Below, one piece after another: positions 34,319 to 50,063 of a stretch of DNA of 63,648 nt. Within the stretch, counting starts at the first letter, position 1. Every line of letters starts with the position of its first letter. The notes below the pieces were generated by a model. That model ran no database searches and was not told where the DNA came from. It was given only the letters and a program-made list of their open reading frames with translations. Origin of the DNA: Candidatus Dormiibacterota bacterium (GTDB lineage Bacteria > Chloroflexota > Dormibacteria > Aeolococcales > Aeolococcaceae); NCBI GenBank assembly GCA_003153125.1, contig PLWW01000083.1, positions 60,676-124,323 of the forward strand. The letters run 5' to 3'. The position numbers and the translations under genes are program-made.

Positions 34319-34322
34319 CGGG

Positions 34323-35261
34323 GTGGGCCGCGTCGCCATCGTCGAGGACGGCAGGCACCTCGGCCATTTCTCCGAGGGGCACCCCGAGCGCCCGGATCGC
34401 GTGGAGACGATTCGCGCCCACCTCTCGTCGAGCCCGGCGATGCGCGCCTTGGCGCGGCTCCCCGCCGAGGCCGTCGACGACGACGTGTTGCTCCGTGTGC
34501 ACTCCCAGCAGCACCTCGACCGCGTCGCGGCGCTGTGTGCCGCCGGCGGTGGGAGCTTCGACCTTGACACATACGCGACCGCGTTCTCCGACAAGGCGGC
34601 GCGAATATCCGCGGGCGGGGCCGTACGTGCCGTCGACGCCGTCGTCGTCGAGGGCTTCGATGCCTCTTTCGCGGTGGTGCGCCCACCCGGGCACCACGCC
34701 ACCACCGGGAGCGCGATGGGCTTCTGCGTCTACAACAACGTCGCCGTCGCCGTCGAGCACGCCCGCGCCACCCTTGGGATCGCCCGCTGCGCCATCGTCG
34801 ACATCGACGTCCACCATGGCAACGGCAGCGAGGCCACCTTCTGGAACGATCCCGCCGTGCTGTACACGTCTCTCCACGAGTACCCGTTCTACCCAGGCAC
34901 CGGCGCCCTCGCTGACCGCGGTGGCCCGGGGGCGGAGGGCCTCACCGTCAACGTCCCGCTTGCCGCGGGGACGTCGGCGGCCACGTGGCTGCAGGGATTC
35001 GACGACGCTGTGCTCCCGGCGCTCCGCGCCTTCGAGCCCGAGCTCATCGTGGTCAGCTGTGGCTTCGACGCGCACCGCGACGATCCCCTCGCCGACCTGC
35101 GCCTCGACACAGCGACGTACGCCGCCGTCGCCGAGCGGCTGGCGTCGCTCACCGCGCTGCCCGCCGCCGGCCGAACGGTGTGGGTGCTGGAAGGCGGCTA
35201 CGACCTCGACGCCCTGACGGCGTCGACCCAGGCGGTGCTGGACGCGCTCATCGCAGCGTGA
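34323..35261 (+). CDS. Histone-deacetylase-family amidohydrolase (AcuC/Aph-like)
   Basis: VRPPGHHA, IVDIDVHHGNGS, GFDAHRDDPL, and EGGY. Confidence 0.87.
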   Translation: MGRVAIVEDGRHLGHFSEGHPERPDRVETIRAHLSSSPAMRALARLPAEAVDDDVLLRVHSQQHLDRVAALCAAGGGSFDLDTYATAFSDKAARISAGGAVRAVDAVVVEGFDASFAVVRPPGHHATTGSAMGFCVYNNVAVAVEHARATLGIARCAIVDIDVHHGNGSEATFWNDPAVLYTSLHEYPFYPGTGALADRGGPGAEGLTVNVPLAAGTSAATWLQGFDDAVLPALRAFEPELIVVSCGFDAHRDDPLADLRLDTATYAAVAERLASLTALPAAGRTVWVLEGGYDLDALTASTQAVLDALIAA

Positions 35262-35287
35262 CCACGGTGCGATACGGTGGCACCGCC

Positions 35288-36100
35288 ATGCGCATGCGTT
35301 GGATCCCGGTCGCGCTCGCCGTCGCCGTGCTGGCCGGCTGCGGCCCGGGCACCAGCGCACCGACGGGAATCGCCACCAATCCACCGGTGCAGGGCACCGC
35401 GTCGACAGGCGGGGCGACGCCCTCGGCGAACCCGGCCTCCGGCGTGCGGACCGTGCTCAGTACGCTGGGCCTCAACATCCGTGGGGCCCCGGCGCTCACC
35501 GGCCCCGTCCTGGGCACAGCCGCACAGGGAGCGCAGCTCAGTGTCGTCGGCCACACCGACCAGAACGGGGGCTGGTACCAGGTGCAGGGCCAGACGGTCA
35601 GCGGATGGATCACCGCCGACCCCTCGCTGAGCGCGGCCGGCCAGTTTCAGCAATACCAGTCGCAGGATCGCCAGTTCAGCGCGCTCTACCCGATGACCTG
35701 GACGTTCTCGGAGACAACGGCGGCGGCCCTTTTCCTCCCCATGACGGGCGCGCAGACGATCGTGGTCCGCAACGGGGCGCACACCGCCGACTTCGGGGCC
35801 GGAGGCGGTGCCGGCTTCGTCGGCTCCGGACAGCAGACCGTGGTGGTCTGCGGCGTCACCGGTGACCTCAACGCGTACGCCCACCAGGGCGCCGCGGCGC
35901 CCACGCCCGCGCCGGGCACGGCGGGGCCGCTGGCGTTCCTGGACCAGATCCGCCTCCGCCTCGACGCCACCCACGCACTGGCACTCGATTTCAACTACAG
36001 CGCCGCCGCGGACGTCGACGTGTTCAGCGCGTTCTACAACTCGATGACCTTCCCGTTCCCGCAGTGCCAGAAGCCGGCGCCATCAGCGTCGCCCACCTGA
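35288..36100 (+). CDS. Lipoprotein with bacterial SH3 domain
   Basis: MRMRWIPVALAVAVLAGCG (lipobox). LNIRGAPALTGPVLGTAAQGAQLSVVGHTDQNGGWYQVQGQTVSGWI is SH3b-like. Confidence 0.7.
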   Translation: MRMRWIPVALAVAVLAGCGPGTSAPTGIATNPPVQGTASTGGATPSANPASGVRTVLSTLGLNIRGAPALTGPVLGTAAQGAQLSVVGHTDQNGGWYQVQGQTVSGWITADPSLSAAGQFQQYQSQDRQFSALYPMTWTFSETTAAALFLPMTGAQTIVVRNGAHTADFGAGGGAGFVGSGQQTVVVCGVTGDLNAYAHQGAAAPTPAPGTAGPLAFLDQIRLRLDATHALALDFNYSAAADVDVFSAFYNSMTFPFPQCQKPAPSASPT

Positions 36101-36109
36101 GGCGGTCGA

Positions 36110-37087
36110 TCAGACGACCTGCTGGCCGATGCCGTGCGAAAGAAGGGTGCTGTGAGCGGCCGACATGCCCACCGCGCTGATCACCAGCATGGCGACGTAG
36201 GCGAGGCCGATGGCCGTGCGCACGTATGACGGGAGCGGTGGCGGATCGAGGCCGGCGTGGCTGCTGCGGAAGCGGCCGACGGTGCTGAAGATGCCGAAGA
36301 GCAGGATGATGATCAGGAACGGGTTGATGTTCGCGCCGCTCGCCCAGTAGCCGCCGATGAGCACCACGAGAACGCCGATCCCCGCCACGTTGGCCCACTT
36401 GGACACCGCGCTGGCGACCCGTCCGCCGTCCAGGGGCGACATGGGGATGAGGTTGAAGAGGTTGACCAGGCACCCCCAGTACGCGAGAGCCAGGAACAGG
36501 TAGCGGGTCTGCCCCTCGGGGAGCGCCAGCGCGAAGGCGTAGCAGAGTAGCGCCGCCGCCGTGCCCACCACCGGGCCGCCGATGGCGACGATCGCCTCCT
36601 GGCGCGCGTCGCGGAATCCGCGGGTGGTCACCACGGCGCCGAAGCCGAAGAGGAAGAAGGGGCTGGACACCGGGAGCTTCTGGGCGTGCGCGAAGATCAT
36701 GTGACCGCTCTCGTGGATGGCGATGAGCAGGAGTGCGCCCAGGCCGAACTGCCAGCCGAACAGGCCGATGTAGATGAGCAACGACAGTCCGAAGCTGATG
36801 AACGTGCCGCTCAGCTTGCCGAACTTGAGCAGGACGAAGCCGTATTTGAACGCCGCAGCAAGAGCGGCGAGGACGCCGCCGGCGAGGCCGCCGCGGCGCT
36901 GCTGGTTGCGGGCAGGGGCGCGGTGGATCGATGCGGGGGTGAGGGGTGCGGCCGGGCCGCCCTCGGCGCGCCAGCTGTAGCCGTCGCCGCTGGGGATCAG
37001 CGCGGCGGGTGGGGGAGGGGGCGCAGACGGCGGCGCCGCCCACCCGTAGCCGCCCGGCGTTCCCGCTGCCGGGATCTCGTCTGCCAT
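36110..37087 (-). CDS. Site-2 protease family (M50) membrane metalloprotease with Pro-rich N-terminus
   Basis: HESGH and NLIPMSPLDGG motifs; polytopic. Confidence 0.8.
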   Translation of the reverse strand: MADEIPAAGTPGGYGWAAPPSAPPPPPAALIPSGDGYSWRAEGGPAAPLTPASIHRAPARNQQRRGGLAGGVLAALAAAFKYGFVLLKFGKLSGTFISFGLSLLIYIGLFGWQFGLGALLLIAIHESGHMIFAHAQKLPVSSPFFLFGFGAVVTTRGFRDARQEAIVAIGGPVVGTAAALLCYAFALALPEGQTRYLFLALAYWGCLVNLFNLIPMSPLDGGRVASAVSKWANVAGIGVLVVLIGGYWASGANINPFLIIILLFGIFSTVGRFRSSHAGLDPPPLPSYVRTAIGLAYVAMLVISAVGMSAAHSTLLSHGIGQQVV

Positions 37088-37132: not shown

Positions 37133-37894
37133 TCAGCGGATGGCAACAAGCACGCGGTCGGCGAGGTGCTGCCAGAGCGTGTCCACCTCGGCAAAGCCTG
37201 CTTGGCGCAGCAACATGACGTGGGCAGCGAGGTCTGCCTGGTTCTCGTGGTCGGGATGGTCGTGGTGACGGAGGTTGCGCTCGGCGACCTCGGCGGCGAG
37301 ACCCGGGTCGGCGTCGACAGCCTCCCACCACTGCTCCCACGACTCGCTGGAGCCGCCCGCCGGCGCGCGGCGCCGGTTGCGAATGCTCAGGGCGGCGGCG
37401 GCGAGTCGCGGTTCTGTCGCCGGCAGGGCCATGCCGTCGCCGTTGACGAACACCCCTCCCGGTCGCAGGACGGTGCCGAGATGCCGGTACAGACCCGCGA
37501 GAGCATCGAGCTTGAGCCAGTGCAGGGCGGTGGCCGACACCGCGGCGTCGACCGGTCCCGCCGCCTGTGCGCTCCACCGTGAGCGCAGGTCGGCGTCGAG
37601 CCAGGACAACCGACCACCCATGTCGCCGAGGGCGTTGCGACCGATGGCCAGGAGCACGGGATCCATGTCGATGGCGGTGACGCGCGCCCCGGGCAGGCGT
37701 TCGATGATGCGGCGCGCCAGCGAACCGGGACCTGAACCGAGGTCGGCGACATGCGGCGCGGTGCCGCAGAGGTCCACCAGAACGTCGATCATGGCCGCGA
37801 ACCGCTCCTCGCGGTCGGGCATTTCGCGCCCCTGCTGTGCCTCCCAGCGGTCGAGCCACCTCGACCAGTCCGTCGCCGCCGTCTGATCAGTCAT
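37133..37894 (-). CDS. Class I SAM-dependent methyltransferase
   Basis: VADLGSGPGSLARRI (motif I) and VTAIDMDP. ATG 37894 (MTDQTAA); the ORF track start is 37954. Confidence 0.8.
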   Translation of the reverse strand: MTDQTAATDWSRWLDRWEAQQGREMPDREERFAAMIDVLVDLCGTAPHVADLGSGPGSLARRIIERLPGARVTAIDMDPVLLAIGRNALGDMGGRLSWLDADLRSRWSAQAAGPVDAAVSATALHWLKLDALAGLYRHLGTVLRPGGVFVNGDGMALPATEPRLAAAALSIRNRRRAPAGGSSESWEQWWEAVDADPGLAAEVAERNLRHHDHPDHENQADLAAHVMLLRQAGFAEVDTLWQHLADRVLVAIR

Positions 37895-37913
37895 GACCGG
37901 ACGTTCGCACACA

Positions 37914-37927
37914 CACGACGTGTCGTG
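37914..37927. promoter_or_regulatory. Palindrome in the 49-bp divergent methyltransferase/ligase promoter region
   Basis: CACGAC-GT-GTCGTG has perfect 6-bp arms and lies centrally between ATG 37894 (minus strand) and ATG 37944 (plus strand). Confidence 0.3.
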
Positions 37928-37943
37928 ACAGTATTCGACGCCC

Positions 37944-39191
37944 ATGCCTGCCACTCACGTGATCGGCCTGCTCCTCGGCGCCGAGGAGGACTGGCCGGCG
38001 GCGTTCGAGTCCCTGTTGGAGCGCGTCGCCCCATCCATCACGCAGGGTGGCGTGACCCACGAGTTCACGACGGAGCGGGTCACGATCGAGCCCTTCAACC
38101 TGCGCGCCGTGCCCCGCTATTCGCTGGTCATCGACCGTCTCGCCTGGTGGTACCACATGCCGCGCGAGTGGCTCAAGAAGGTGGCACTGATGAACGAGGT
38201 GCACCTTCTCAACAACCCATTCACATTCCAGTCGATGGAGAAGCACGCCGCCTACTGCGCGATGATGCGCCTCGGACTGCGCGTCCCCGAGACGTGGATG
38301 GTGCCCAACAAGGTGCCGCCGGACAATCCCCGTTTCGCCACCACGGCCGACCGATACGTGCGCCGCTTCGACCTCGAGGGCGTGGCGGACGCCGTCGGCA
38401 TGCCGCTGTACATGAAGCCGTTCGACGGCGGCGCCTGGGTGGGCGTGACCCGTATCGAGGACCATGCCGCCCTGCATCGCGCCTACGACGAGTCCGCCGA
38501 GCGGCTCATGCACCTGCAGGCCGCGGTTGAGGATTTCGACGTCTTCGCGCGCAGCCTCGGCATCGGCGCCGAGACGATGGTGATGCGCTTCAACCCGTCG
38601 CGGCCGATGCACTCGCGCTACTCGGTGGCGCACAACTTCCTCGATGACGACACCGGCACCGAGGTGGTCACCATCGCGCGTCTCGTCAACGCCTTCTTCC
38701 GGTGGGAGTTGAACAGCTGCGAGACGCTCCTCAAGGACGGGGTCGTGTATCCCATCGACTACGCCAACGCCACCCCCGACCTCGCGGTCACGAGCCTGCA
38801 CTACTACTTTCCCTGGGCCATCCGCACGCTTCTCAAGTGGGTCATCTTCTGCTGTGTCACCGGGCGGCGCCCCACCGTCGACCTCGACACCGAGAAGTAC
38901 TTCGAGATCGCCGACCGCGAGGGGCTGACCTACGGCGATCGACTCAACGAGTACAGGCGGCTGGCCGACCGCCAGCTCGACGTGGATCGCTACCAGGAGT
39001 TCTGCGCGCGCCACCTCGCCGACGTCGATGAGATCACCGTCGACTGGGTGGAGAGCGACGACTTCGACCGCCTGCTCATCAGGACGGTGATCTCGACCTA
39101 CCCCGAGCACGAGCGCGAGATGTTCCTCGGCCACTTCCGTGGCCTGCTCGGGCTCTGGGCACACGACCAGCGCGTGGCGGCGTCGGCGTAG
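37944..39191 (+). CDS. Atypical ATP-grasp-like ligase (family not identified)
   Basis: PLYMKPFDGGAWVGVTRI..., then MHLQAAV and YPIDYANATPD, an ATP-grasp-like order of blocks. The stop lies 2 nt before the GCS2 gene. Confidence 0.65.
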   Translation: MPATHVIGLLLGAEEDWPAAFESLLERVAPSITQGGVTHEFTTERVTIEPFNLRAVPRYSLVIDRLAWWYHMPREWLKKVALMNEVHLLNNPFTFQSMEKHAAYCAMMRLGLRVPETWMVPNKVPPDNPRFATTADRYVRRFDLEGVADAVGMPLYMKPFDGGAWVGVTRIEDHAALHRAYDESAERLMHLQAAVEDFDVFARSLGIGAETMVMRFNPSRPMHSRYSVAHNFLDDDTGTEVVTIARLVNAFFRWELNSCETLLKDGVVYPIDYANATPDLAVTSLHYYFPWAIRTLLKWVIFCCVTGRRPTVDLDTEKYFEIADREGLTYGDRLNEYRRLADRQLDVDRYQEFCARHLADVDEITVDWVESDDFDRLLIRTVISTYPEHEREMFLGHFRGLLGLWAHDQRVAASA

Positions 39192-39193
39192 CG

Positions 39194-40378
39194 GTGTCCA
39201 TCGATTTCGTGTCCAGTGCCGGGCCCAGCCTGGGAGTCGAGATGGAGCTGGCCATCATCGACCCGGGCTCGCGCGAACTCGTCAAGGGTGGCCACGAGTT
39301 GCTCATCGAGATGGGCGCGGGTCACGACGGCGGCATTCATCCGAAGGCCAAGGCCGAGCTCCTGCAATCCACGATCGAGATCATCACCGGCATCTGTCGG
39401 AACGTCGCGGAAGCGCGAGCCGACCTCGCCGCCACGCTCGAGGAGGTCACCGCGTACACAGAGCGCCGCGGCCTGCTGCTGATGTGTGCGGGGACGCACC
39501 CTTTCAGCAACCCCATGCTCCAGGAGATCACGCCCAACGACCGTTACCGGCGCCTGGTGGAAGAGATGCAGTGGCCGGCGCGGCAGATGCAGATCTTCGG
39601 TATCCACGTCCACGTCGGCGTGCGCAGCGGCGAGAAGGCGATCGCCATGGTCAACGCGCTGACCGCTTACATCCCGCATTTCCTGGCCCTGAGCGCCTCA
39701 AGCCCGTACTGGATGAGCCACGACACGGGGTTGGCGTCGACGCGGTCGAAGGTGTTCGAGGGGCTTCCGACCGCGGGGCCTCCATGGCAGCTCAGTGGCT
39801 GGGCACAGTTCGAGCGCTTCATGGACACGCTCATCGCAGCGCACACGATCGCCAGCATTCGCGAGGTGTGGTGGGACATCCGGCCCCACCCCGGGTTCGG
39901 CACGGTCGAGCTGCGCATCTGCGATGGCATGCCGACGCTGCGCGAGGTGGCGGTGGTTGCCGCGCTGAGCCAGTGCCTCGTGCACAGCATGGACACGCTC
40001 ATCGACCGCGGTCACACCCTGCCGGTGCCGCGCGCCTGGGTCGTGCGCGAGAACAAGTGGCGCGCCGCGCGCCACGGCATCGACGCCTCGATCATCACCG
40101 ACGACGACGGCACCACCGTGCCGCTCCGCGAGGCGATCCCCGAGCTTGTCGAGGAACTGATGCCCATCGCGCAGCATCTGGGATGCGCAGCCGAGCTCCG
40201 GGATACACTGACCATCATCGACCGCGGTCCGAGTTACATCAGGCAGCGTGAGGTGGTCGCGGACGGCGGCACGCTCATCGACGTCGTCGACACCCTTGTC
40301 GCCGAGCTGCGCAGTGCGTCGCCACTGCCGCGCCGCCTCCCATCGGCTGCGCCGGCCGCGAATGGTCAGCCGGCGTAG
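39194..40378 (+). CDS. Carboxylate-amine ligase, glutamate-cysteine ligase family 2 (YbdK-like)
   Basis: LGVEMELAIID, ELLQSTIEIITG, GTHPFS, RYRRLVEEMQWPARQMQIFGIHVHVGV. Confidence 0.9.
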   Translation: MSIDFVSSAGPSLGVEMELAIIDPGSRELVKGGHELLIEMGAGHDGGIHPKAKAELLQSTIEIITGICRNVAEARADLAATLEEVTAYTERRGLLLMCAGTHPFSNPMLQEITPNDRYRRLVEEMQWPARQMQIFGIHVHVGVRSGEKAIAMVNALTAYIPHFLALSASSPYWMSHDTGLASTRSKVFEGLPTAGPPWQLSGWAQFERFMDTLIAAHTIASIREVWWDIRPHPGFGTVELRICDGMPTLREVAVVAALSQCLVHSMDTLIDRGHTLPVPRAWVVRENKWRAARHGIDASIITDDDGTTVPLREAIPELVEELMPIAQHLGCAAELRDTLTIIDRGPSYIRQREVVADGGTLIDVVDTLVAELRSASPLPRRLPSAAPAANGQPA

Positions 40379-41586
40379 ATCTGCAGCTCTCCGGCGAAGC
40401 GATCGGCGATGCCGATGCATGCCGACAGCTCGGGGTGGCGCACGATGACCCACCCGTCGGAGAGCAGCGTCTGACGCCAGTCGCGGCGGGGCGAGCCCAC
40501 CGAGAGCAGGTCGACAGCGGCCACCCACTCGCCGAGCTCGCCGAGCAGCCGGCCCAGTCCCTCGATGGCGGTGATCCGCCCCTGTCCCTGCGCCCTCTTG
40601 CACACCGCCGCGCTGTTGAATGAGCGCGTGACCTCCTCGGTGAAGCCGCCGAGCACAACCGCCTCCGCCCAGCGTGTGTAGAGGTCGCTGTCACACGTGA
40701 AGTTCATGACGTCGACGGTGCGCGCTCCCGGCGGGCGCGCACCGATCTCGCCGAACACGACCTCGCCGTCTTGCCGGCGATACCACTCCATGTGGGTGAA
40801 GCCGTCGCGAAAGCCAAGCGCGCCCAACACCGCCCGGCCCATCGCCCGGCCGCCGGCGAGGTGTTCGACGCTGGGGTCGCGCAGCGCCAGCGTGATCGGG
40901 CTGATCCACTCCAACGAGCGCGCGATCAGCGGTCGCGGCCGATACCAGGAGATATTCTCGTAGAGGACCTGCCCGTCGGCGCAGATGGTGTCGAAGGTGA
41001 ACTCCTCGCCGTCGACGAATTCCTCCACGCTCACGTCGGCGACGTTGACGACCTCAGGCAGCACCGCCTCGAGGTCGGCGGCGCTGTCCACGCGGTAGGT
41101 GTGCGCGGACCCAGCGCCAGCGATGGGCTTGACGACGAGTGGGAAACCGATGTCCTCCGCAGCCTGGCGCACGCCGTTGACGGTGGCGGCGCGATGGTGA
41201 CGCGGGGTGCGGATCCCGGCGGCGTCGAGGACGCGCTTCATCTCCTCCTTGTCGCGGAAGGGGATCGTCTGCTCCACCGTCATGCCCGGCACGTCGAGCA
41301 TCTCGCGCAGGCGCGCGGCCAGCATCATGGTCGGCTCCCACAGCGACTCAACCTGGTCGATGCGAACGTGCGCGGCGTGCCGTCGCACGGCTTCGACGAT
41401 GCCGTGCTCATCGCCGAAGGAAGGCACCTGCCAGTAGGCGTCGAGGTTCTCCTGGGCCATGGCAGGAAGCGAGGTCGCCGGCTGGTCACCGACACCGACC
41501 ACACGCGCTCCGTTGGCGGCCAATCCGCGGACGAAGAACGGCATCTCCGCGGGGTACCCGGGCGAGATCAGGAGCACGGTACGCAC
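40366..41586 (-). CDS. ATP-grasp ligase, paralog 1 (L-amino-acid-ligase-like)
   Basis: FRDKEEMKRVL, PLVVKPIAGAGS, THMEWY, GEIGARPPG. GTG start lies 2 nt after the stop of paralog 2. Confidence 0.85.
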   Translation of the reverse strand: MRTVLLISPGYPAEMPFFVRGLAANGARVVGVGDQPATSLPAMAQENLDAYWQVPSFGDEHGIVEAVRRHAAHVRIDQVESLWEPTMMLAARLREMLDVPGMTVEQTIPFRDKEEMKRVLDAAGIRTPRHHRAATVNGVRQAAEDIGFPLVVKPIAGAGSAHTYRVDSAADLEAVLPEVVNVADVSVEEFVDGEEFTFDTICADGQVLYENISWYRPRPLIARSLEWISPITLALRDPSVEHLAGGRAMGRAVLGALGFRDGFTHMEWYRRQDGEVVFGEIGARPPGARTVDVMNFTCDSDLYTRWAEAVVLGGFTEEVTRSFNSAAVCKRAQGQGRITAIEGLGRLLGELGEWVAAVDLLSVGSPRRDWRQTLLSDGWVIVRHPELSACIGIADRFAGELQIYAG

Positions 41587-41588
41587 CG

Positions 41589-42815
41589 TCAGTCGTCGCT
41601 CATCTCGACGATGGCCACCTCGCTGATGCGGCGCAGCGCTGCCGCGACGGTGTCCGTGTCATCGCCACGGAGGATGACGTAGCCCTCACCCTCGTACGAC
41701 TCGCTGCGCGGCTGCCCCTCGTGAGGAAGACGCGCCTCCACCACCAGGTCGCCCAACTCATGCTGCAGCGTCTCGAGGCCGTGCACGCCACGGACCACCC
41801 CGTGTCCCTGACCGCGCAGGTACACGGCGCCCACCGCGTGGCGCCGCTGCGGCGGGTCGAACTCCCCGAGGATCTCCAGCCTCGCCCAGACCGTGTACAT
41901 GTCGGCGTCGTGCGCGTAGGAGAGCAGGGACGTGAACTGCGCGCCGGGTGGCCGCGCGGCCACCTCGGAGATGGCGATGCGCCCCTCATTGAGCAGGAAC
42001 CACTCCATGTGGCTGAAACCGCTGTCCATACCGAGCGCGCGCAGTGCGCGCGCGGCGCCGTCACGGATGGCGTCGAACTCGTGCCCGGCGATGGAGCGGG
42101 GGAGGAGCACCGCCCACTGGATCCACGGGTTCTGCAGCACCTCGAGCGGGGTGGGCTGATACCTCGAGATGGAGTGCCACGCCACCTCACCACCGACGCA
42201 GACGCTGTCGAAGCTGTGCTCGGCGCCGCTCACAAGCTCCTCGAGGAGCGCGGGTTCCGACGCCGTCGGCGGATCGACGCGAAGCCACGCCGCCAGCTGG
42301 TCGGCGCTGTCCACGCGGAAGGTGCCGTGCGCGCCTGCGCCCGCGGGCGGCTTGACCACCACCGGCAGGCCGAGCTGGTCGGTGATCGACGACGCCTGTC
42401 CCGCGGACGTGGCAACTCCGTGTCGAGCGCAGGGCACACCGTGGGCTGTGAACACGTCCTTCATCCGCGATTTGTCGCGGAAGTTGCGAGCCACCTCGGC
42501 GCCCATCCCGGGGAGGTGAAGCGCGTCGCGCACCTCACCGAGGGGCACCTGCAACTGCTCGAGCATGCCGACCAAGCGATCGACGCCGCCGAGGTGTCGC
42601 GCCAGGGCGCTGGTGGCGCCGGCGATCTGGGCGGCGTCGACGCCGTCGTCGACGCGCCAGTGCGCGGCCAGCTTGTTGCGGAGCGACTGAGGGAGCTTCT
42701 CCTCGGGGTCCTGGCTCACCACTGCCAGCCTCACCCCGGGCAGGGAGGCGGCCGCGTCGATGAAGCGCACCGTGGCGTCGAGCAGGAACGGCGCGACGAA
42801 CACGGCGGTGGGCAC
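41589..42815 (-). CDS. ATP-grasp ligase, paralog 2
   Basis: FRDKSRMKDVF, PVVVKPPAGAGA, SHMEWF, SEVAARPPG. GTG 42815 is chosen by N-terminal alignment to the paralogs (AVFVAPF vs VLLISPG/VIFIEPA). The ORF track TTG at 42878 would collide with the divergent gene's ATG. Confidence 0.8.
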   Translation of the reverse strand: MPTAVFVAPFLLDATVRFIDAAASLPGVRLAVVSQDPEEKLPQSLRNKLAAHWRVDDGVDAAQIAGATSALARHLGGVDRLVGMLEQLQVPLGEVRDALHLPGMGAEVARNFRDKSRMKDVFTAHGVPCARHGVATSAGQASSITDQLGLPVVVKPPAGAGAHGTFRVDSADQLAAWLRVDPPTASEPALLEELVSGAEHSFDSVCVGGEVAWHSISRYQPTPLEVLQNPWIQWAVLLPRSIAGHEFDAIRDGAARALRALGMDSGFSHMEWFLLNEGRIAISEVAARPPGAQFTSLLSYAHDADMYTVWARLEILGEFDPPQRRHAVGAVYLRGQGHGVVRGVHGLETLQHELGDLVVEARLPHEGQPRSESYEGEGYVILRGDDTDTVAAALRRISEVAIVEMSDD

Positions 42816-42877
42816 GACGGCACCATACAGGCCCGCGGGCACCGCCGCGACGACCGCGCCGGTAGGATCGAGCCGCA

Positions 42878-44095
42878 ATGAACGTTATCTTCATCGAGCC
42901 GGCATTTCCCCTCAACCAGCGCGAGTTCATGCGCGGGCTCGCCGCGGCCGGCGCCACCGTGATCGGCATCGGGGAGCGGCCGCTTGACCACCTCGACCCC
43001 GAACTGCAGGGCTGGATGCTCCATTACCAGCAGGTCGGCAACGTCACGGATGTCGGCGCGGTCACAGACGTGGTGCGCTGGGTGCAGGAACGCCTCTGGG
43101 TCGACCGCCTCGAGGCGGCGGTGGAGGCGCACACCATGGCGGCCGCCCAGGTCCGCGAGAACTGCACCATCCCGGGCACGTCGGTGCGCACCGCCTGGTT
43201 GTGCCGCGACAAGCCGTCGATGAAGGAGGTGCTGCGCGGGGCGGGCGTGCCCACCGCCGCGTCCACGGCGGCTCACTCGGCAGCCGAGGTCCGTGATTTC
43301 GCGGCACGGGTCGGCTACCCGCTCATCGTCAAGCCGCGTGCCGGCGCCGGCGCCTCGGGAACTGTCCGCGTCGAGAGCGCGGCCGAGCTCGACGGTGCCC
43401 TGGCGGGTTTCGGCTCGGCGGAGTCGATTGCCGTCGAGGAGTTCGTCGAGGGCCACGAGGCCTTCTACGACACGCTGTCGATCAACGGCGAGCCCGTCTA
43501 CGACTTCGTCACGCACTACTACCCCAACGTGCTCGACGCGATGCGCACGCGCTGGATCAGCCCGCAGTTCGTGGCCACCAACCGCGTCGACACCGTCGCC
43601 GACTACGCCGAGGTGCGCGAGATGGGGCGGCGCGTCACCGAGGCCCTGGGGATCAGCACGTCGGCGACGCACATGGAGTGGTTCTTCGGTCCGCGGGGCC
43701 TGCGCTTCAGTGAGATCGGTTGCCGCCCGCCCGGGGTTCGCGCCTGGGACCTCTACGCGGCCGGCAACGACATCGACATCTATCGCGAATGGGCCAACGC
43801 CGTCCTGCATGGGCGCGTCGATCGCCCCCTGTCGCGACGTCGCGCCGCCGGCCTGGTCGCGCTCCGCCCCGACCGGGACGGGCAGATCACCCACTACGAC
43901 GGCGTCGACGAGGTGCAGCACCGATTCGGCGAGCACATCCTCGATGTGCACCTCCCCGAGCCCGGAACGCCCACCCAGCCGGTGGAGGCCGGGTACATGG
44001 CCAACGCCTGGGTCCGCCTCGTCCACCCCGACTACGACACGCTGCGGGCCATGCTCGACTCGGTCGGGCAGATCCTCAAAGTCCACGCCTCGTGA
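42878..44095 (+). CDS. ATP-grasp ligase, paralog 3
   Basis: CRDKPSMKEVL, PLIVKPRAGAGA, THMEWF, SEIGCRPPG. TAGGAT lies 9 nt upstream of the ATG (leaderless-type). Confidence 0.85.
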   Translation: MNVIFIEPAFPLNQREFMRGLAAAGATVIGIGERPLDHLDPELQGWMLHYQQVGNVTDVGAVTDVVRWVQERLWVDRLEAAVEAHTMAAAQVRENCTIPGTSVRTAWLCRDKPSMKEVLRGAGVPTAASTAAHSAAEVRDFAARVGYPLIVKPRAGAGASGTVRVESAAELDGALAGFGSAESIAVEEFVEGHEAFYDTLSINGEPVYDFVTHYYPNVLDAMRTRWISPQFVATNRVDTVADYAEVREMGRRVTEALGISTSATHMEWFFGPRGLRFSEIGCRPPGVRAWDLYAAGNDIDIYREWANAVLHGRVDRPLSRRRAAGLVALRPDRDGQITHYDGVDEVQHRFGEHILDVHLPEPGTPTQPVEAGYMANAWVRLVHPDYDTLRAMLDSVGQILKVHAS

Positions 44096-45021
44096 GCGTT
44101 GCCGTCCTGCTCGGGCCGGCCGGCCCCGAGACGGTTGCGGGCGAGTTCGGCCGCCTCGGCGTCGACGGCCCGATCGCCCTGGTCACGGCGGGCTGGGAGG
44201 AGCGTGAGCGCAACGACGCCGAGCTCGACCGCGCGGTCGGGGGGGGCACACGCAACCTCGGGCTCTTCGGCAGACGCCTCGACATCCTCGAGAGTGACCC
44301 GGAGTACGCCGAAGAGATGCGCCGCGTGCGCACCCTGCTCACCTCGCTCCGCGAGGTGTACCTCGTGCAGTTGCGCCACGCGCTGCTTGGCATCGAGGCT
44401 GTGCGTCAGCACGATGCCGGGGCGCGGCGCCTGTCCGGCGTTCAACTCGACGAGGCGATCGAGACCGTCCGTGCCCTCGACGAGCGCCATGCCGCCCGTC
44501 TCGAGGCGGTGCTCGGTGAGTTCTACGCGCTCTACCCACCGCACGAGCGTCCCGCGATCGCCTCTCACCGCGACGCCGTGGCCTCGATCGTCGCGCAGTG
44601 CTCCGCGGTGGCCATCGCCGGCGGCCACGTCGGTGTTCTCACGGACTGCCTGCACGTATGCAACCTCGGCGCCGCCCTGGCCGACGTGCCCGTGGTGGCG
44701 TGGTCGTCGGGCGCGATGGCGATCGCCGAGCGGGTCATGATCGTCGACGATCACGACCTCGGCGGCGTCCCCGATGAGGTGTATGGCGCCGGGATCGGCC
44801 TGGCCCGCGGCGTGGTGCCGCTGCCGGCCTCGGCGAGCCGGCTGCGCATCGATGACCGCAACCATCTCGCCCTCCTCGCCCGGCGGCTGGCGCCGCGCGT
44901 CTGCGTGCTGCTCGACGAGGGCGACCGCATCGCCGTCGTCGACGGTGGCCCCGCGGACTTCAGAAACGCACGCGTGGTCGGGCCGGACGGCATGGTGCGG
45001 TCGGCAGCGACCGCGGCGTGA
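44092..45021 (+). CDS. Peptidase S51 (cyanophycinase/PepE)-like protein with long helical insert (tentative)
   Basis: PIALVTAG, AVAIAGGHVGVL, VVAWSSGAMAIA (GxSAGA-like) and GIGLARGVVPLPA. GTGA overlap with the upstream ligase. Confidence 0.5.
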   Translation: MSVAVLLGPAGPETVAGEFGRLGVDGPIALVTAGWEERERNDAELDRAVGGGTRNLGLFGRRLDILESDPEYAEEMRRVRTLLTSLREVYLVQLRHALLGIEAVRQHDAGARRLSGVQLDEAIETVRALDERHAARLEAVLGEFYALYPPHERPAIASHRDAVASIVAQCSAVAIAGGHVGVLTDCLHVCNLGAALADVPVVAWSSGAMAIAERVMIVDDHDLGGVPDEVYGAGIGLARGVVPLPASASRLRIDDRNHLALLARRLAPRVCVLLDEGDRIAVVDGGPADFRNARVVGPDGMVRSAATAA

Positions 45022-46181
45022 CCGCCACCTCGCCGAACGCGCCCCGGCGTCGCGCGCTCACCAAGCTGCGCGCCGACGGGGTGCGGGTCGCAGCCATCGA
45101 CCAGCTCCTCGCTGAGAACCGCGTCCCGCTCATCGAAGGGGTCGCCTGCACCTTCCTCTTCCGCGGCCGCGCTGATGGGGTCGCCGTGGAGCACGCCATC
45201 AGCGGCCTCCCCGCGCCGCTGCCGCTGAAGCGACTGCGGCGCAGCGACCTCTGGTACGCCTCCATCGAGCTGCCTCCGGGCTCTCGCGTCGAGTACCGGC
45301 TCCTGGTCCGCCACGGCGACCGGGTCGACAACATCCTCGACCCGCTCAACCCCGAGTCGGTCACCGGTCCGGCGAGCACGATGTCCGTTCTGCGCGCCGA
45401 GGGCTACACGACACCGTCGTGGGCGCTGCCCGACCCCGCGGTGGTGACCGGCGAGCTCACCGAACTCCGTTTCCACAGCAAGGCTCTGCGCCGCGAGGCT
45501 CACGTGACGCTGTACTCACCGGCGCGGATGCGCCGCGAGGATCGCCTCCCCCTGCTCGTGGTGCACGACGGTGGTGACTACCTCAAGCACGCGTCGTTCG
45601 GGACGGTTCTCGACAACCTCATGGACCAGCGCACAATGTCCGGCTGCGTGGTTGCGTTCACCCATCCCGGCGAGAGGCTGCGTGAGTACGGCGCCAGTGC
45701 CGCGCACAGCCGCTTCCTCACCGCCGAGCTCGTGCCTCTCCTCGAGGAGCGGCTTCCCCTGCGCGCGGAGCCGGCCGGCCGGGTCCTCGCCGGGGCGAGC
45801 TTCGGGGCCATCGCGGCACTGTCGGCGGCATGGCGAGCGCCGGGTTTCTACGGCGGCCTGCTGTTGCAGTCGGCTTCGTTCCTCTACACCGTGGTGGGCC
45901 GCGAGCACCAGGGCGGCCCCGCGTTCGACCCCGTGGTGCGCTTCGTCAACGCCATCCGCGCGCAGCCGCAATTGACGGTGGAACAGATCTTTCTCAGCTA
46001 CGGCGCGTTCGAGCCGTCGGCCCAGCGCAACCTCGCCATGGTCGACGTGCTCCGTCGGATGGCGTCGGAGGTCAAAGTGGTGGAATCCCTCGACGGTCAC
46101 ACATGGACGGGGTGGCGCGACCATCTCCGTGACGGCCTCAGCTGGCTGTTCCCGGGCGAGAAGCGCTTGCTCTACCCCTGA
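45018..46181 (+). CDS. Esterase (enterochelin-esterase-like, N-terminal Ig-like domain plus alpha/beta hydrolase)
   Basis: SDLWYASIELPPGSRVEYRLLV, PLLVVHDGGDYL, GASFG (GxSxG). GTGA overlap with the upstream gene. Confidence 0.75.
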   Translation: MTATSPNAPRRRALTKLRADGVRVAAIDQLLAENRVPLIEGVACTFLFRGRADGVAVEHAISGLPAPLPLKRLRRSDLWYASIELPPGSRVEYRLLVRHGDRVDNILDPLNPESVTGPASTMSVLRAEGYTTPSWALPDPAVVTGELTELRFHSKALRREAHVTLYSPARMRREDRLPLLVVHDGGDYLKHASFGTVLDNLMDQRTMSGCVVAFTHPGERLREYGASAAHSRFLTAELVPLLEERLPLRAEPAGRVLAGASFGAIAALSAAWRAPGFYGGLLLQSASFLYTVVGREHQGGPAFDPVVRFVNAIRAQPQLTVEQIFLSYGAFEPSAQRNLAMVDVLRRMASEVKVVESLDGHTWTGWRDHLRDGLSWLFPGEKRLLYP

Positions 46182-46200
46182 TGCGCCAGACTCCGCCCTC

Positions 46201-46926
46201 ATGAAAATGCGCGATCGCTGGTATTCGTCGCGGCTCGAGAGCGACGTGACCGTGGTGCGGTGGGGCCATTTCGGGCGCCCGGTGATCGTGTTTCCGACCG
46301 CCGGCGGCGACGCCGAGGAGGTCGAGCGCATGCTGCTCATCGACGCACTCGCCGAACTCATCGAGGCGGGGCGTATCAAGGTGTACTCCTGCGACAGCAT
46401 CGCCGGCTACGCGATGGTCCGCGGTGACGGCGACGCACGCTATCGAGCCGCCCTGCTCAACGGGTTCCACGAGTTCGTCCGTGAGGAGATGATTCCCGCC
46501 ATCTGGGCCGATTGCCGGACACCGGGCGCCGACGTGGTGGTCAGCGGGGCGTCAATCGGTGCCTTCAACGCAATTGCGGTGCTCTGCCGGTACCCCGAGG
46601 TCGTCAGCCACGCCATCGCCATGAGCGGGACCTTCGACGTCGCCTCCTTCATCGGCCCCGACGCCGGAGAGGCGTTGTATTTCGCGACCCCGCTGTACTT
46701 CCTGCCCGGCCTGCAGGGCCAGGCCCTTCAGCGCCTGCAGCACCGCTTCGCCGTCCTCGCGTCCGGAGAGGGGCGGTGGGAGAACATCGAGAACTCCTGG
46801 CGCCTCGCTGAGGTGATGGGGCAGAAGGGCATTCCCAACCGCGTCGACCCCTGGGGGCCGGAATACGACCACGACTGGCCGACGTGGCGGGCGATGCTGC
46901 CCCACTACCTGAGCCAGATGTCATGA
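46201..46926 (+). CDS. Esterase-family alpha/beta hydrolase
   Basis: RPVIVFPTAGGDAEE and VSGASIGAFNA (GxSxG). ATG 46201; the ORF track start is 46129. Confidence 0.7.
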   Translation: MKMRDRWYSSRLESDVTVVRWGHFGRPVIVFPTAGGDAEEVERMLLIDALAELIEAGRIKVYSCDSIAGYAMVRGDGDARYRAALLNGFHEFVREEMIPAIWADCRTPGADVVVSGASIGAFNAIAVLCRYPEVVSHAIAMSGTFDVASFIGPDAGEALYFATPLYFLPGLQGQALQRLQHRFAVLASGEGRWENIENSWRLAEVMGQKGIPNRVDPWGPEYDHDWPTWRAMLPHYLSQMS

Positions 46927-47801
46927 GCGACGTGACCGACCACCCACTGCGCGAGATCCGCCTCGCCGTCATCGGCACCGGTGTGATGGGCGAGGCGATG
47001 ATGGCCGGGCTGGTGGATCGCCGGCTCGTCGACGCCGCGCGCGTGGTCTGCAGCCACCCCCGCGCCGAGCGCCGCGACGCGCTCGTTGCCGCGCACGGTG
47101 TCGGTGTCACCGCCGACAACGCGGCGGCAGCGAGCACGGCCGACATCGTGCTGCTGGCCGTCAAGCCGCAGATGCTCGCGCCCGTCCTGGCAGAGCTGCG
47201 CGGCACCTTGCGCGAGGATCAGCTGGTGGTCAGCGTCATCGCCGGCGCGAGCACACATGCGCTGGCGACGAACCTGCAGCACCCCGCCGTGGTGCGCACC
47301 ATGCCCAACACGCCCGCGCAGATCGGCCAGGGCGTGACCGTGTGGTTCGCCACCGACAGCGTCGACGAGCGCGGCCGCGCCCGCGTCCGGGCCATGCTCA
47401 GCGCCCTGGGGCGGGAGTTCGAGGTTCACGACGAGCGCCAGGTGGCCATGGCCACGGCGGTCAGCGGCACCGGCCCCACCTACGTCTTCCTGTTCATCGA
47501 AGCGTTGACCGACGCCGCCGTCCATCTCGGCTTCCCCCGCCACGTCGCACGCGAGCTCGTCCTCGACACGATGTCCGGGTCGGCGGAGTTCGCGCTGCGA
47601 AGCGGCCGTCACGTCGCCGAGCTCCGCGACATGGTCACCTCCCCGGGGGGGACCTCCGCCGAGGCGTTGTACGAACTGGAGAAGGGACGCCTGCGCACCG
47701 TCGTCAGCGACGCGGTCTGGGCGGCCTTCGAAAGAACCCTGCAGCTGGAGGCGCGGCTGGAAGGAACCGACACCGAGAAGGACCAGCGCCGGCGCCGCTG
47801 A
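46923..47801 (+). CDS. proC: Pyrroline-5-carboxylate reductase
   Basis: IRLAVIGTGVMGEAM, VLLAVKPQ, RTMPNTPAQIGQG, TSPGGTSAEAL. ATGA overlap with the esterase stop. Confidence 0.9.
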   Translation: MSDVTDHPLREIRLAVIGTGVMGEAMMAGLVDRRLVDAARVVCSHPRAERRDALVAAHGVGVTADNAAAASTADIVLLAVKPQMLAPVLAELRGTLREDQLVVSVIAGASTHALATNLQHPAVVRTMPNTPAQIGQGVTVWFATDSVDERGRARVRAMLSALGREFEVHDERQVAMATAVSGTGPTYVFLFIEALTDAAVHLGFPRHVARELVLDTMSGSAEFALRSGRHVAELRDMVTSPGGTSAEALYELEKGRLRTVVSDAVWAAFERTLQLEARLEGTDTEKDQRRRR

Positions 47802-47856: not shown

Positions 47857-48288
47857 ATGAACTGCGCTTCCTGCGGGTCGGTGCATCGGGAAGGACGGCG
47901 ATTCTGCGGCAAGTGCGGGGCTCCCCTGGCCAAGGTGTGCGCGGCCTGCAACGCCGTCAACGACAACGACGAGAGCTTCTGCGGCCAGTGCGGCGCCGCC
48001 GCCCGTTTGGCCATCGCCCGTGGGCGCCACCTCGAGGTCGCGGCTCTGCTCCGCGACGCGGTCGACCTCTTCGAGTCCATGAAGATGCCCTTCTGGGTCG
48101 CAGTGACGCGCCTCGAGCACGCCGAGGGGCTCATCACGCAGGGCCGCTCGGCGGACGCCGACGACCTCCTTGCGCTCGCGTCCGCGACGTTTGCCGAGCT
48201 CCACGCGGTGCCCTGGCATCGGCGCGCCACCCAGGCCGCGCACGACGGGCCCGCCGCCAAGGAGGCCGCCACCGCGTTGCCTGCGTGA
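47857..48288 (+). CDS. Double zinc-ribbon protein with short TPR-like C-terminus
   Basis: CASCGS...CGKCG...CAACN...CGQCG, followed by about 95 aa that look helical. Confidence 0.6.
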   Translation: MNCASCGSVHREGRRFCGKCGAPLAKVCAACNAVNDNDESFCGQCGAAARLAIARGRHLEVAALLRDAVDLFESMKMPFWVAVTRLEHAEGLITQGRSADADDLLALASATFAELHAVPWHRRATQAAHDGPAAKEAATALPA

Positions 48289-50063
48289 CGGCCACGACGG
48301 CCGCGGTGGAGGGACAACCCGAGAAGCGGGCCAAGGTCGGCTATCGCTCGCTCTTCGGGATCCGCGACTACAGGTTGTTGTTCGCCGGTCTGGTGACCTC
48401 GCAGAGCGGGTCCTGGGCATACAACGTCGCCCTCGTCGTCTACGTGTTCAACGCCACGCACTCGCCCGCCTGGGTCGCGGCCGCGTCGATGGCGCGCTTC
48501 CTCTCCGCGCTGCTGTCGAGCGCGTTCGGCGGTGTGATCGCCGACCGTGTGGAGCGGGTCCGGCTCATGGTGACGCTCGACACCATCGCGATGGTCGTGC
48601 AGGCTGGGCTGGCCGCCGCCGCCGCGCTGAATACGCCCGCGCTGCTCATCATCGTGCTGGCGACCCTGACCTCGGTCACCACCGCCTCATACGACCCGAC
48701 AGCTCGGGCCACGATCCCCGCCGTCGTCGGTGAGGAGCACCTCGCGGCGGCCAACAGCGTCCAAGCCGCGGTCGAGAACCTGACCATCATCATCGGTCCG
48801 GCGATCGGTGGGCTGCTCCTGCTGGTCGGGCCCGCGCCGCTCGTGTTCGCCATCAACGCGGCCACGTTCGGGTTCTCGGCGCTCGTGGTCGGCCGGGTTC
48901 GGGCGCGGAGCGTGCCCGGGGACGCCACCGAGGGCGGGACGTTGGGCCCCATCCAGCAGATGGGGGTGGGGATCAAGGCGTTCTTCAGCTCGTCGACGGT
49001 GGTGGTGCTGGCCGGGTTCAGCATCGTCGCCAGCTTCCTGTACGGGACCGACACGGTGCTGTTCGTGGTGCTGAGCAAGCAGCAGCTGGGCACCGGCAGC
49101 GAGGGCTACGGGTACCTCCTCGCCGCGCTCGGCGTGGGCGGCCTGGTGATGGCCCCCTTCATGAACCGGATCTCAGCGATGCGCCGCCTGGGGACGATCA
49201 TCGTGGCCGCCCTCACCGTCTACGGACTTCCCACCGCGCTCCTCGCCGTGGTCCATTCGCCGGTGCTCGCATTCGCGCTCGAGGCCGTGCGAGGCGGGGG
49301 CACCCTGGTCGTCGACGTGCTCGCCATCACCGCCCTGCAGCGCGCCGTGTCGCCCGACGTCGTCGCCCGGGTCTTCGGCGTGTTCTTCGCGCTTGTGCTC
49401 TCCGCGATCGCGCTCGGGGCGCTGCTCATGCCGATCCTGCTGGGCGCCTTCGGGCTCACCAGCACGCTGCTCATCGTCGGCTTCTCGATCCCGGCGCTGA
49501 GCCTGCTGTCCTATCCCAAGGTGCGCCAGGTCGACCGCCAGGCGGTGGGCCAGCTCGCCGCCATCGAACCTCGCATCGCCATCATGCAGCGCCTCGACAT
49601 CCTCGGCGGCGCCAGCCGGGCGACCCTGGAGCGCCTCGCCCTGTCGGCGGGTGAGGAGACGGTGCCGGCTCGCCAGGTGATCATCCAGGAGGGCGACGAG
49701 GCGGACGACTTCTTCGTGCTCGTCGGCGGCGAGGCAGAGGTCATCGCGGCGGGGGAGGCGGGTGTGGCGCAGATGCTGGGCACGCTGACGCCGCCCAACT
49801 ATTTCGGAGAGATCGGGCTGTTGGCGCGCCGCCCCCGGACGGCGACGGTGCGGGCCGTCACCGAGTGCAGCCTGTACCGCATCAGGGGCGACGAGTTCGT
49901 CGACGCGCTCACTGCCGCGTCGCTCTCGGCGGCGACCCTCGGGGGCGCGCAGCGGCGCCTCGCGCGCACCCACCCGTCGCTGTCGATCGACCTCGCACGC
50001 CAAGTGCAGGCGACGGAGCCCCGCGAGGCGCCGCCCACCGGGGGGCCGCCGCAAGAAGGCTAG
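48285..50063 (+). CDS. MFS transporter fused to a C-terminal cyclic-nucleotide-binding domain
   Basis: About 12 TM segments (DRVERVRLM motif region), then ...FFVLVGGEAEV...FGEIGLLARRPRTATVRA. GTGA overlap with the upstream gene. Confidence 0.85.
   Translation: MTATTAAVEGQPEKRAKVGYRSLFGIRDYRLLFAGLVTSQSGSWAYNVALVVYVFNATHSPAWVAAASMARFLSALLSSAFGGVIADRVERVRLMVTLDTIAMVVQAGLAAAAALNTPALLIIVLATLTSVTTASYDPTARATIPAVVGEEHLAAANSVQAAVENLTIIIGPAIGGLLLLVGPAPLVFAINAATFGFSALVVGRVRARSVPGDATEGGTLGPIQQMGVGIKAFFSSSTVVVLAGFSIVASFLYGTDTVLFVVLSKQQLGTGSEGYGYLLAALGVGGLVMAPFMNRISAMRRLGTIIVAALTVYGLPTALLAVVHSPVLAFALEAVRGGGTLVVDVLAITALQRAVSPDVVARVFGVFFALVLSAIALGALLMPILLGAFGLTSTLLIVGFSIPALSLLSYPKVRQVDRQAVGQLAAIEPRIAIMQRLDILGGASRATLERLALSAGEETVPARQVIIQEGDEADDFFVLVGGEAEVIAAGEAGVAQMLGTLTPPNYFGEIGLLARRPRTATVRAVTECSLYRIRGDEFVDALTAASLSAATLGGAQRRLARTHPSLSIDLARQVQATEPREAPPTGGPPQEG

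Follow-up and report, generated by a model that had tools for sequence, protein, structure and literature searches.

The locus at positions 37133 to 47801 of a 63,648-nt stretch of contig PLWW01000083.1 (hereafter the window, meaning the whole stretch of DNA that was analysed) raises a simple question: do the genes for ATP-dependent ligases and for hydrolases that lie there side by side form one pathway, and what would such a pathway make? An earlier note, made from the letters of this DNA, had proposed a dedicated amide-ligase pathway with its own turnover enzymes. Our analysis supports a functional unit of seven genes, which encode P2 (an ATP-grasp protein without a Pfam family), the three ATP-grasp paralogues AGD, AGE and AGF, P7 (assigned to the S51 family) and the two serine hydrolases Est1 and Est2. 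We lean slightly towards reading this unit as a conserved, chromosomal, cytoplasmic and non-ribosomal system that builds an oligopeptide or poly(amino acid) of the Asp/Glu type and turns it over. The enzyme superfamilies are known ones in a new combination, and the system is widely conserved and, as the note had surmised, apparently undescribed: literature searches found no published description of the gene set, although they did not cover the 2009 amidoligase survey (Iyer et al.), which might list part of the neighbourhood. The note had taken Actinomycetota as the host group, but P2 is 97% identical to a protein of a Candidatus Dormibacterota metagenome-assembled genome (MAG) and 90% identical to one of Ca. 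Aeolococcus gillhamiae, which places the window in Dormibacterota.

Linkage of the cluster genes across lineages

Among 32 Dormibacterota loci, the gene for a GCS2/YbdK carboxylate-amine ligase (GCS2) was found in 32, AGD, AGE and AGF in 29, P7 and proC (pyrroline-5-carboxylate reductase) in 27 each and Est1 in 26, and the gene order was kept in 29. In one rearranged locus (L026, 1-9292), P2, AGD, AGE, AGF, Est1, Est2, GCS2 and proC are still together and P7 is lost; GCS2 has been relocated after Est2, and Est1 is a 272-aa protein without the N-terminal domain. Several loci carry unrelated genes between GCS2 and AGD, for example a glycosyltransferase or a MarR regulator. In a distant Dormibacterota class the ligases are 65-73% identical, as conserved as proC, and the flanking HDAC-like and M50-like genes are 40-55% identical.

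Two gene loci carrying the Dormibacterota arrangement are labelled otherwise (L010, Candidatus Acidiferrales, and L037, Candidatus Saccharimonadales). They have the same gene order and are 72-75% identical to it, and the labels probably reflect mis-binning or mislabelling of MAGs.

Outside the phylum the linkage takes other forms. Of the core, Thermoleophilia retain Est1-Est2-P2 alone, a trio that 29-30 of 30 loci contain, and all other neighbours are variable. A scan seeded with remote P2 relatives gave 80 metagenome loci, and in the metagenome loci the seven core families recur in at least four other orders: AGD and AGE on the minus strand followed by AGF, P7, Est1, Est2 and P2 on the plus strand; AGF on the minus strand followed by AGE, AGD, P7, Est1, P2 and Est2 on the plus strand; P7, Est1, P2 and Est2, all on the plus strand, with the paralogues nearby; and P7, Est1, P2 and AGF. 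The proteins of these loci are about 25-69% identical to those of the window when all core proteins are taken together (P2 41-63%, P7 24-43%, Est1 35-53%), with the lowest values at 24-45%, and the linkage is seen in both deep clades of the P2 family. More remotely, a distant P2 relative begins 6 nt after a Pfam-verified S51 gene in L084, and in L085 a PF00756 gene is found close to a second such relative.

Two apparent gene fusions were detected, each on a single contig. P7 and Est1 are joined through a Pro/Ala-rich linker into a protein of 730 aa in L090 (4077-6266), and an apparent read-through fusion of AGE and AGD (815 aa, stop codon lost) occurs in L078 (13383-15827), where an assembly error is possible. 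A candidate Est2-P2 fusion in L050 was rejected, the C-terminus of Est2 being frameshifted there. The recurrence of the genes in rearranged orders, together with the fusions, excludes chance juxtaposition for the seven-gene core and supports it as a functional unit.

The ATP-grasp proteins

P2 (37944 to 39191, plus strand; 415 aa, no Pfam match) had been described as an atypical ATP-grasp-like protein, and profile comparison bears this out. A profile built from 18 diverse members matches 104 ATP-grasp chains in the PDB, among them D-Ala-D-Ala ligases (Ddl, 4.6e-6), biotin carboxylases and, over residues 52-209, RimK. Aligned by hhalign with the catalytic core of AGD, AGE and AGF (probability 96.6%), the P2 profile superposes K158 on the Lys of the (V/I)VKP block, E260 on the Glu of the (T/S)HMEW block and D272 and N275 on the E..RPPG block of the paralogues, and these four residues are invariant in the 18 members. 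Lys158 is thus predicted to bind ATP, and Glu260, Asp272 and Asn275 are predicted metal ligands. On this evidence P2 is to be regarded as a genuine ATP-grasp protein of a compact, unnamed family, which belongs to the Ddl/RimK/LysX-like branch and carries a helical C-terminal region of about 125 aa.

None of the 18 members reached a Pfam or NCBIfam cut-off; the weak matches to Dala_Dala_lig_C, rimK_fam and LysX were all far below, rimK_fam being matched by 6 of the 18. The family is compact: an exhaustive search of 1.84 billion representatives gave just 244 P2 clusters at E<1e-30. Two deep clades make it up, with 42-45% identity between them. No P2 match was found on plasmids. A look-up of clusters gave only entries named 'hypothetical protein', one of them from Planctomycetota, and three word-indexed homologue searches returned close, unnamed Dormibacterota proteins alone. 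P2 is 72-87% identical across Dormibacterota and 62-67% identical in Thermoleophilia.

Remote relatives of P2 occur in other settings. Two of them, P0262 and P0347, lie in unrelated gene contexts, and HEAT-repeat proteins stand beside remote relatives on two unrelated contigs (L084, 3654-7991, and L085, 6749-14419, the latter from a Planctomycetota MAG). In L086 (8001-13070), a relative with 30% identity is followed by an overlapping gene for a 447-aa protein, an ATP-binding cassette (ABC) exporter with a C39 peptidase and a 44-aa open reading frame (ORF) with a weak match to type-A lantibiotics, which looks like a peptide-maturation context for that branch of the family.

The other three ATP-grasp proteins, paralogues that resemble L-amino-acid ligases, are AGD (40366 to 41586, minus strand; 406 aa, weak ATP-grasp and ATPgrasp_N Pfam matches), AGE (41589 to 42815, minus strand; 408-429 aa, Pfam ATP-grasp 32.5 bits) and AGF (42878 to 44095, plus strand; 405 aa, weak LAL_C2 match). 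The start of AGE is probably 42815 rather than 42878, homologues beginning at the position equivalent to 42815. As had been noticed from the sequence, the three are similar to one another (33-35% identity) and all contain the blocks (F/C)RDK..MK, (V/I)VKP.AGAG, (T/S)HMEW and E(I/V)..RPPG. Their own orthologues in rearranged loci are more similar than this (AGD 49-67%, AGE 45-57% and AGF 48-69%), so the triplication is old and the three proteins are not redundant. AGF is the paralogue most tightly linked to the core of hydrolases and P2, and P2-AGF pairs are found in L092, L102 and L106. In the PDB it comes closest to two L-amino-acid ligases, 4wd3 (2.5e-13) and 3vot (2e-9). Against NF002563, a model of proteins in which an ATP-grasp domain is joined to an argininosuccinate-lyase-like one, AGE scores 91.8 bits, far below the cut-off; the match hints at aspartate chemistry, as does the S51 protein.

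No named family of Pfam or NCBIfam was reached at cut-off by any of the four ATP-grasp proteins. LAL_C2 gave 18.3 bits (cut-off 29.4) and the BacD model 27-32 bits (cut-off 850) among AGD, AGE and AGF, while the cyanophycin synthetase models TIGR02068/NF010623 gave 27-37 bits over about 90 residues, with cut-offs of 850-877. A Mur-ligase domain was found in no protein of the region. The earlier note had named two outcomes that would speak against its idea, namely ligases that fall inside families with known products and a gene order kept in no related genome. The ATP-grasp scores lie far below the NCBIfam cut-offs (37 against 850 for cyanophycin synthetase), and the order is widely kept in Dormibacterota and the gene set recurs, rearranged, in distant lineages. 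As neither check went against the idea, a functional unit outside the non-ribosomal peptide synthetase (NRPS), ribosomally synthesised and post-translationally modified peptide (RiPP) and canonical cyanophycin templates is supported.

The hydrolases

P7 (44092 to 45021, plus strand; 309 aa) has no Pfam or NCBIfam match in the window protein, and searches of PDB sequences and profiles with it gave noise alone; its family was resolved by fold search and orthologues. The nine top Foldseek matches in the PDB to its AlphaFold2 model (predicted local distance difference test, pLDDT, 72; predicted template modelling score, pTM, 0.72) are all S51 proteins (PepE and pseudo-CphB), with target-normalised TM-scores of 0.53-0.66. 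Four of five P7 orthologues from other lineages match PF03575 at 34-41 bits (cut-off 23.9 bits), and the profile of Dormibacterota P7 aligns with the Pfam-verified S51 protein of L084 by hhalign (probability 71%, E 3.7e-5). Judged from the model and the orthologues, P7 is a member of the S51 family, as the earlier note had suspected. Residues 58-168, some 110 aa, form a helical insertion.

The canonical S51 triad is Ser-His-Glu/Asp, exemplified by Ser120, His157 and Glu192 of PepE (PMC9239234). In the alignment with the L084 protein, Ser205 of P7 falls on the S-A-G nucleophile. P7 keeps this nucleophile and an acidic residue, Asp275, and has Ala246 at the position of the catalytic His. The catalytic His is missing from all 18 Dormibacterota P7 sequences (Ala or another residue), and most orthologues of other lineages have 'LPH' at this position. 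By its residues the triad is therefore incomplete in Dormibacterota. This phylum-wide loss, with the absence of P7 from L026, suggests that the S51 function is decaying there, and a turnover role of P7 in the window's phylum is uncertain; of the pathway 'with its own turnover' that had been proposed, the functional unit stands and this part does not stand firmly.

The two esterases had been recognised by their GxSxG motifs. Est1 (45018 to 46181, plus strand; PF00756 71.7 bits) resembles enterochelin esterase (Fes) and has an N-terminal E-set-type domain, and Est2 (46201 to 46926, plus strand; PF00756 35.9 bits) is a short serine hydrolase; the PF00756 cut-off is 22 bits. Ser261 of Est1 lies within GASFGA and His361 within DGHTW, while in Est2 Ser118 lies within GASIGA and His224 within DHDW. 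The catalytic Ser and His are invariant in both esterases (14-15 sequences, both phyla). Est1 matches the Fes structures 2b20 and 3mga (7e-11 and 2e-9), but at 96.2 bits it is below the cut-off of 222 for the Fes model NF007758 and is no equivalog. Est2 always adjoins P2 or Est1.

Gene layout and genomic setting

Codon-position guanine-cytosine (GC) content indicates one clear gene per stretch across 37.1-47.8 kb, with third-position GC of 0.83-0.93, and together with the Pfam and NCBIfam matches it places all the genes that the earlier note had listed where they were drawn, with corrected starts for AGE and the methyltransferase. The intergenic spaces of the cluster are 2-62 nt. The junctions P2/GCS2 and AGE/AGD are gaps of 2 nt each, and AGF/P7, P7/Est1 and Est2/proC are start/stop overlaps of 4 nt. 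The short overlaps and gaps reported before (1-4 nt and 2-3 nt) thus apply to these five junctions, but not to Est1/Est2, with a gap of 19 nt, or to GCS2 and AGD, which are convergent and overlap by 13 nt. Translational coupling is tight, and AGF-P7-Est1-Est2-proC form one operon with AGF as its first gene.

The cluster had also been called an island. Its GC content (0.66-0.72) is like that of the flanks, and the remaining window genes encode core functions (alanine dehydrogenase, GH65 phosphorylase, pyruvate:ferredoxin oxidoreductase, LexA and sugar ABC transport). Because of this flank-like GC and the syntenic, core-metabolic flanks, we rejected a horizontally acquired or mobile island.

No signal peptide is visible in the translations of the cluster proteins. 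No small conserved ORF that might encode a precursor peptide was found in the window or related loci, and the Pfam matches of all genes in 29-52 kb include no NRPS adenylation, condensation or carrier domain and no IucA/IucC. The earlier impression that the locus fits neither NRPS, RiPP nor canonical cyanophycin templates is upheld by the absence of such domains, of a precursor ORF and of above-cut-off scores. An Rfam scan gave no riboswitch or leader, its sole match being sub-threshold, and promoter and terminator scans were at chance level. PADLOC gave no defence match for any ligase or hydrolase, and for the methyltransferase a generic methyltransferase match alone.

Accessory and neighbouring genes

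GCS2 (39194 to 40378, plus strand) is a GCS2/YbdK carboxylate-amine ligase, as first read (PF04107 217 bits; NF010043 570 bits, cut-off 409). The GhExE signature, defined in PMC2588565, is present as GVEME at residue 14. GCS2 adjoins P2 in all 32 Dormibacterota loci and elsewhere just in L046 and L104. proC (46923 to 47801, plus strand; TIGR00112 249 bits, cut-off 196.75) stands at the end of the cluster in the window, but its position shifts within the phylum and is mostly directly upstream of P2 instead (with a 3-nt gap in L026). GCS2 and proC are Dormibacterota-specific additions; their membership of the cluster, which had been assumed, holds within this phylum and they are not consistent partners elsewhere.

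A class I S-adenosylmethionine methyltransferase gene (37133 to 37894, minus strand; Methyltransf_25 54.8 bits) is divergent from P2 and probably starts at 37894. It had been counted as a member of the cluster, but of the 32 Dormibacterota loci only 8 have it beside P2, as does no locus of other phyla, and it scores 16.9 bits against TIGR04188, the methyltransferase of ATP-grasp peptide maturase systems (cut-off 380). On the other side of the cluster lies a major facilitator superfamily (MFS) gene of the MFS_3 type, an EntS-like 'transmembrane secretion effector', with a C-terminal cyclic-nucleotide-binding domain (~48312 to 50063, plus strand; PF05977 92.9 bits, PF07690, cNMP_binding). An ORF start at 47913 would add about 130 Arg-rich aa that are probably untranslated. 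The note had seen no NRPS, precursor or exporter; the first two are indeed absent, but this exporter-type gene adjoins the cluster, although it is near it in L001 and L003 alone and is not conserved with the system. Both the methyltransferase and the MFS gene are peripheral neighbours outside the conserved core.

Between proC and the MFS gene, a 143-aa ORF (47857-48288, plus strand) consists of a double zinc-ribbon N-terminus (CxxCG...RFCGKCG) and a short C-terminal segment. These two parts match the two ends of a 1438-aa regulator of the zinc-ribbon/cyclase/ATPase/TPR type in L003 (12030-16346), where it adjoins the same MFS gene as in the window, and the ORF looks like an internal-deletion remnant of the regulator gene. 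Upstream of the cluster (33999-37087) are genes for a deacetylase of the HDAC family, an SH3-domain protein that has a hydrophobic segment at its N-terminus and a membrane metalloprotease of the M50-like type. They are kept throughout Dormibacterota, and no functional link between them and the cluster was found.

Comparison with known systems

The closest logic is that of cyanophycin metabolism (CphA1 with the S51 cyanophycinase CphB), which shares cytoplasmic ATP-grasp synthesis, a co-encoded S51 enzyme and storage with turnover (PMC9239234). The present system differs in that it lacks both the Mur-ligase-like M domain and the N domain of CphA, has its four ligases as separate proteins and includes two further hydrolases of the PF00756 family; P7 differs from CphB in its 110-aa helical insertion and, in Dormibacterota, in the missing catalytic His. 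AGD, AGE and AGF have the same three-domain ATP-grasp layout as stand-alone L-amino-acid ligases (4wd3, 3vot, and PnaB and PnaC of phosphonoalamide biosynthesis), ligases of this type are their best structural-sequence matches, and there is a precedent for several ligases in one pathway (PMC11867202). Unlike those pathways, the cluster has low identity to characterised ligases (best E 2.5e-13) and no warhead or tailoring genes, and is phylum-wide rather than patchy. Its three paralogues are tied to as many hydrolases and to P2, an ATP-grasp protein of another kind.

P2 itself aligns with the RimK/D-Ala-D-Ala ligase branch in its ATP-binding strand and metal-binding positions, but differs in its scores, all far below the family cut-offs, its extra helical C-terminal region and its constant link to PF00756 hydrolases. 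Est1 shares with Fes (PF00756 with an Enterochelin_N domain) the two-domain layout, the GxSxG serine and the C-terminal His, but it has no enterobactin or NRPS context, and its partners are a second, short esterase and the ATP-grasp ligases. In bifunctional glutathionylspermidine synthetase/amidase, a ligase and a hydrolase of the same bond also go together; the amidase has a CHAP fold, whereas the hydrolases here are of the alpha/beta and S51 types. No sequence relation to that enzyme turned up, though no test was aimed at it. From graspetide/RiPP ATP-grasp systems the cluster differs in the lack of a precursor-peptide ORF.

Proposed product and alternatives

In the reading that we favour, each ligase would activate a carboxylate as an acyl phosphate and then join it to an amine, and the ligases would jointly give rise to an acidic, Asp/Glu-containing oligopeptide of defined make-up or to a poly(amino acid) that resembles cyanophycin. 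In the polymer version P2 would make the backbone and AGD, AGE and AGF would decorate it. The S51 and alpha/beta hydrolases would cut specific bonds of the ligase product, and the Est1-Est2-P2 module of Thermoleophilia would make and degrade an undecorated product. Convergent action has a precedent, since two L-amino-acid ligases can build tripeptides in this way (PMC11867202), and every characterised S51 enzyme (PepE, cyanophycinase and MccG) cuts an aspartyl amide bond (PMC9239234). We infer the product type, oligopeptide or polymer, from such features: the aspartyl specificity of S51 enzymes, the module of one ligase and two hydrolases in Thermoleophilia and the housekeeping-level conservation of the ligases point to a stored, cytoplasmic, acidic oligomer or polymer. 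One ligase with two hydrolases, one of which has an extra E-set-type domain, would fit a polymerase with endo- and exo-depolymerases. A product made and mobilised inside the cell would be a store or homeostatic metabolite rather than a secreted antibiotic. A more specific form of the proposal, a new intracellular biopolymer with a P2-polymerised backbone (amide or even ester bonds) that is decorated by the three paralogues and mobilised by the S51 protein and two hydrolases like Fes or polyhydroxybutyrate depolymerase, is tentative, and we consider it rather doubtful.

Several points weigh against the favoured reading. Ligase specificities cannot be read from sequence, and the nature of the product is deduced. 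The AlphaFold2 model of P2, made with 11 close homologues, was unusable (pLDDT 41). With no catalytic His in the P7 of this phylum and no P7 at all in L026, turnover by an S51 enzyme may not apply in the window's organism, and because PF00756 enzymes are typically esterases, thioesterases and acyltransferases, not amidases, the bond may be an ester or thioester. As for linkage, the case rests on metagenome loci that lack taxonomic placement, and within Dormibacterota the upstream HDAC-like, SH3-domain and M50-like genes are as syntenic as the cluster, so that gene order inside one phylum is weak evidence. This equal synteny, with the unrelated genes inserted between GCS2 and AGD, would be expected if the genes formed no functional unit and were neighbours through inherited synteny alone. 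That explanation is hardly credible for the whole: it is contradicted for the seven-gene core by the fusions and by the recurrence of the families in other orders, on other strands and in other lineages at 25-69% identity, and is possible for the methyltransferase and MFS genes.

Among the alternatives that accept a functional unit, the product might be a small soluble metabolite, for instance a thiol of low molecular weight, a compatible solute or the side chain of a cofactor, whose level is set by P2 and an esterase as a synthetase/hydrolase pair on the model of glutathionylspermidine synthetase/amidase, with GCS2 supplying a gamma-glutamyl building block. Glutathione synthetase, too, is of the ATP-grasp type, and S-formylglutathione hydrolases are part of PF00756. 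GCS2 exceeds the cut-off of NF010043 ('glutamate--cysteine ligase') and invariably adjoins P2 in Dormibacterota, where proC-P2-GCS2 is mostly operon-like, and four anciently separate groups of ligase orthologues suggest four defined bonds, not a homopolymer. We nevertheless regard a small metabolite as unlikely, for outside Dormibacterota GCS2 and proC are not linked to the cluster (bar GCS2 in L046 and L104), the likeness of Est1 is to Fes, with no match to an S-formylglutathione hydrolase model, three hydrolases are a high number for so small a conjugate, one of them having an additional binding-type domain, and Thermoleophilia have one ligase but two hydrolases.

Post-translational tagging, in which P2 and the paralogues add amino acids to a protein and the hydrolases remove the tag, has precedents in RimK, which acts on ribosomal protein S6, and in the tubulin-tyrosine-ligase (TTL) family, which acts on tubulin. 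It would account for the unusual conservation of P2 (62-67% between phyla, against 30-35% for the adjacent esterases), and the longest PDB matches of the P2 profile are to RimK, with rimK_fam weakly matched by a third of the members; yet no arrangement holds a conserved candidate substrate gene or small ORF, L-amino-acid-ligase-type proteins are known from the ligation of free amino acids, and all RimK-like scores are far below cut-off, which makes tagging quite improbable. We consider very improbable a secreted peptide antibiotic or siderophore-like compound, exported by the MFS protein, with the Fes-like esterases releasing iron or giving self-protection. The likeness of Est1 to enterochelin esterase, the neighbouring transporter of the EntS-type MFS_3 family and the remote P2 relative beside a C39-ABC exporter and a lantibiotic-like ORF in L086 are in its favour, and stand-alone L-amino-acid-ligase pathways are classic antibiotic routes (PMC11867202); but the cluster is near-universal in the phylum, strongly conserved, native in GC and flanked by core metabolism, the MFS gene is not conserved with it, and the Pfam matches of the genes in 29-52 kb reveal no warhead, catechol or hydroxamate, receptor or resistance genes and no NRPS domains.

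Implications

Whatever the product, P2 defines a sizeable ATP-grasp family without a Pfam model, the P7 group forms a subfamily of S51 that is marked by a helical insertion and has lost the catalytic His in one lineage, and esterase-esterase-P2 is a clean three-gene unit. If a reserve polymer or a key small peptide is what the cluster makes, it would also open a new way to peptides or poly(amino acids) through ATP-grasp enzymes, of biotechnological interest comparable to that of cyanophycin; the biopolymer, if real, would serve Dormibacterota, Thermoleophilia and other soil lineages as a reserve like cyanophycin, made on a different enzymatic plan. Dormibacterota abound in soil; most of them are uncultured, and they are known for their persistence. 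The cluster is present in nearly all the Dormibacterota loci examined, with ligases conserved like housekeeping genes. Should its product be such a polymer, or a small peptide of key importance as a thiol or osmolyte, it would supply a piece now missing from the picture of their dormancy physiology.

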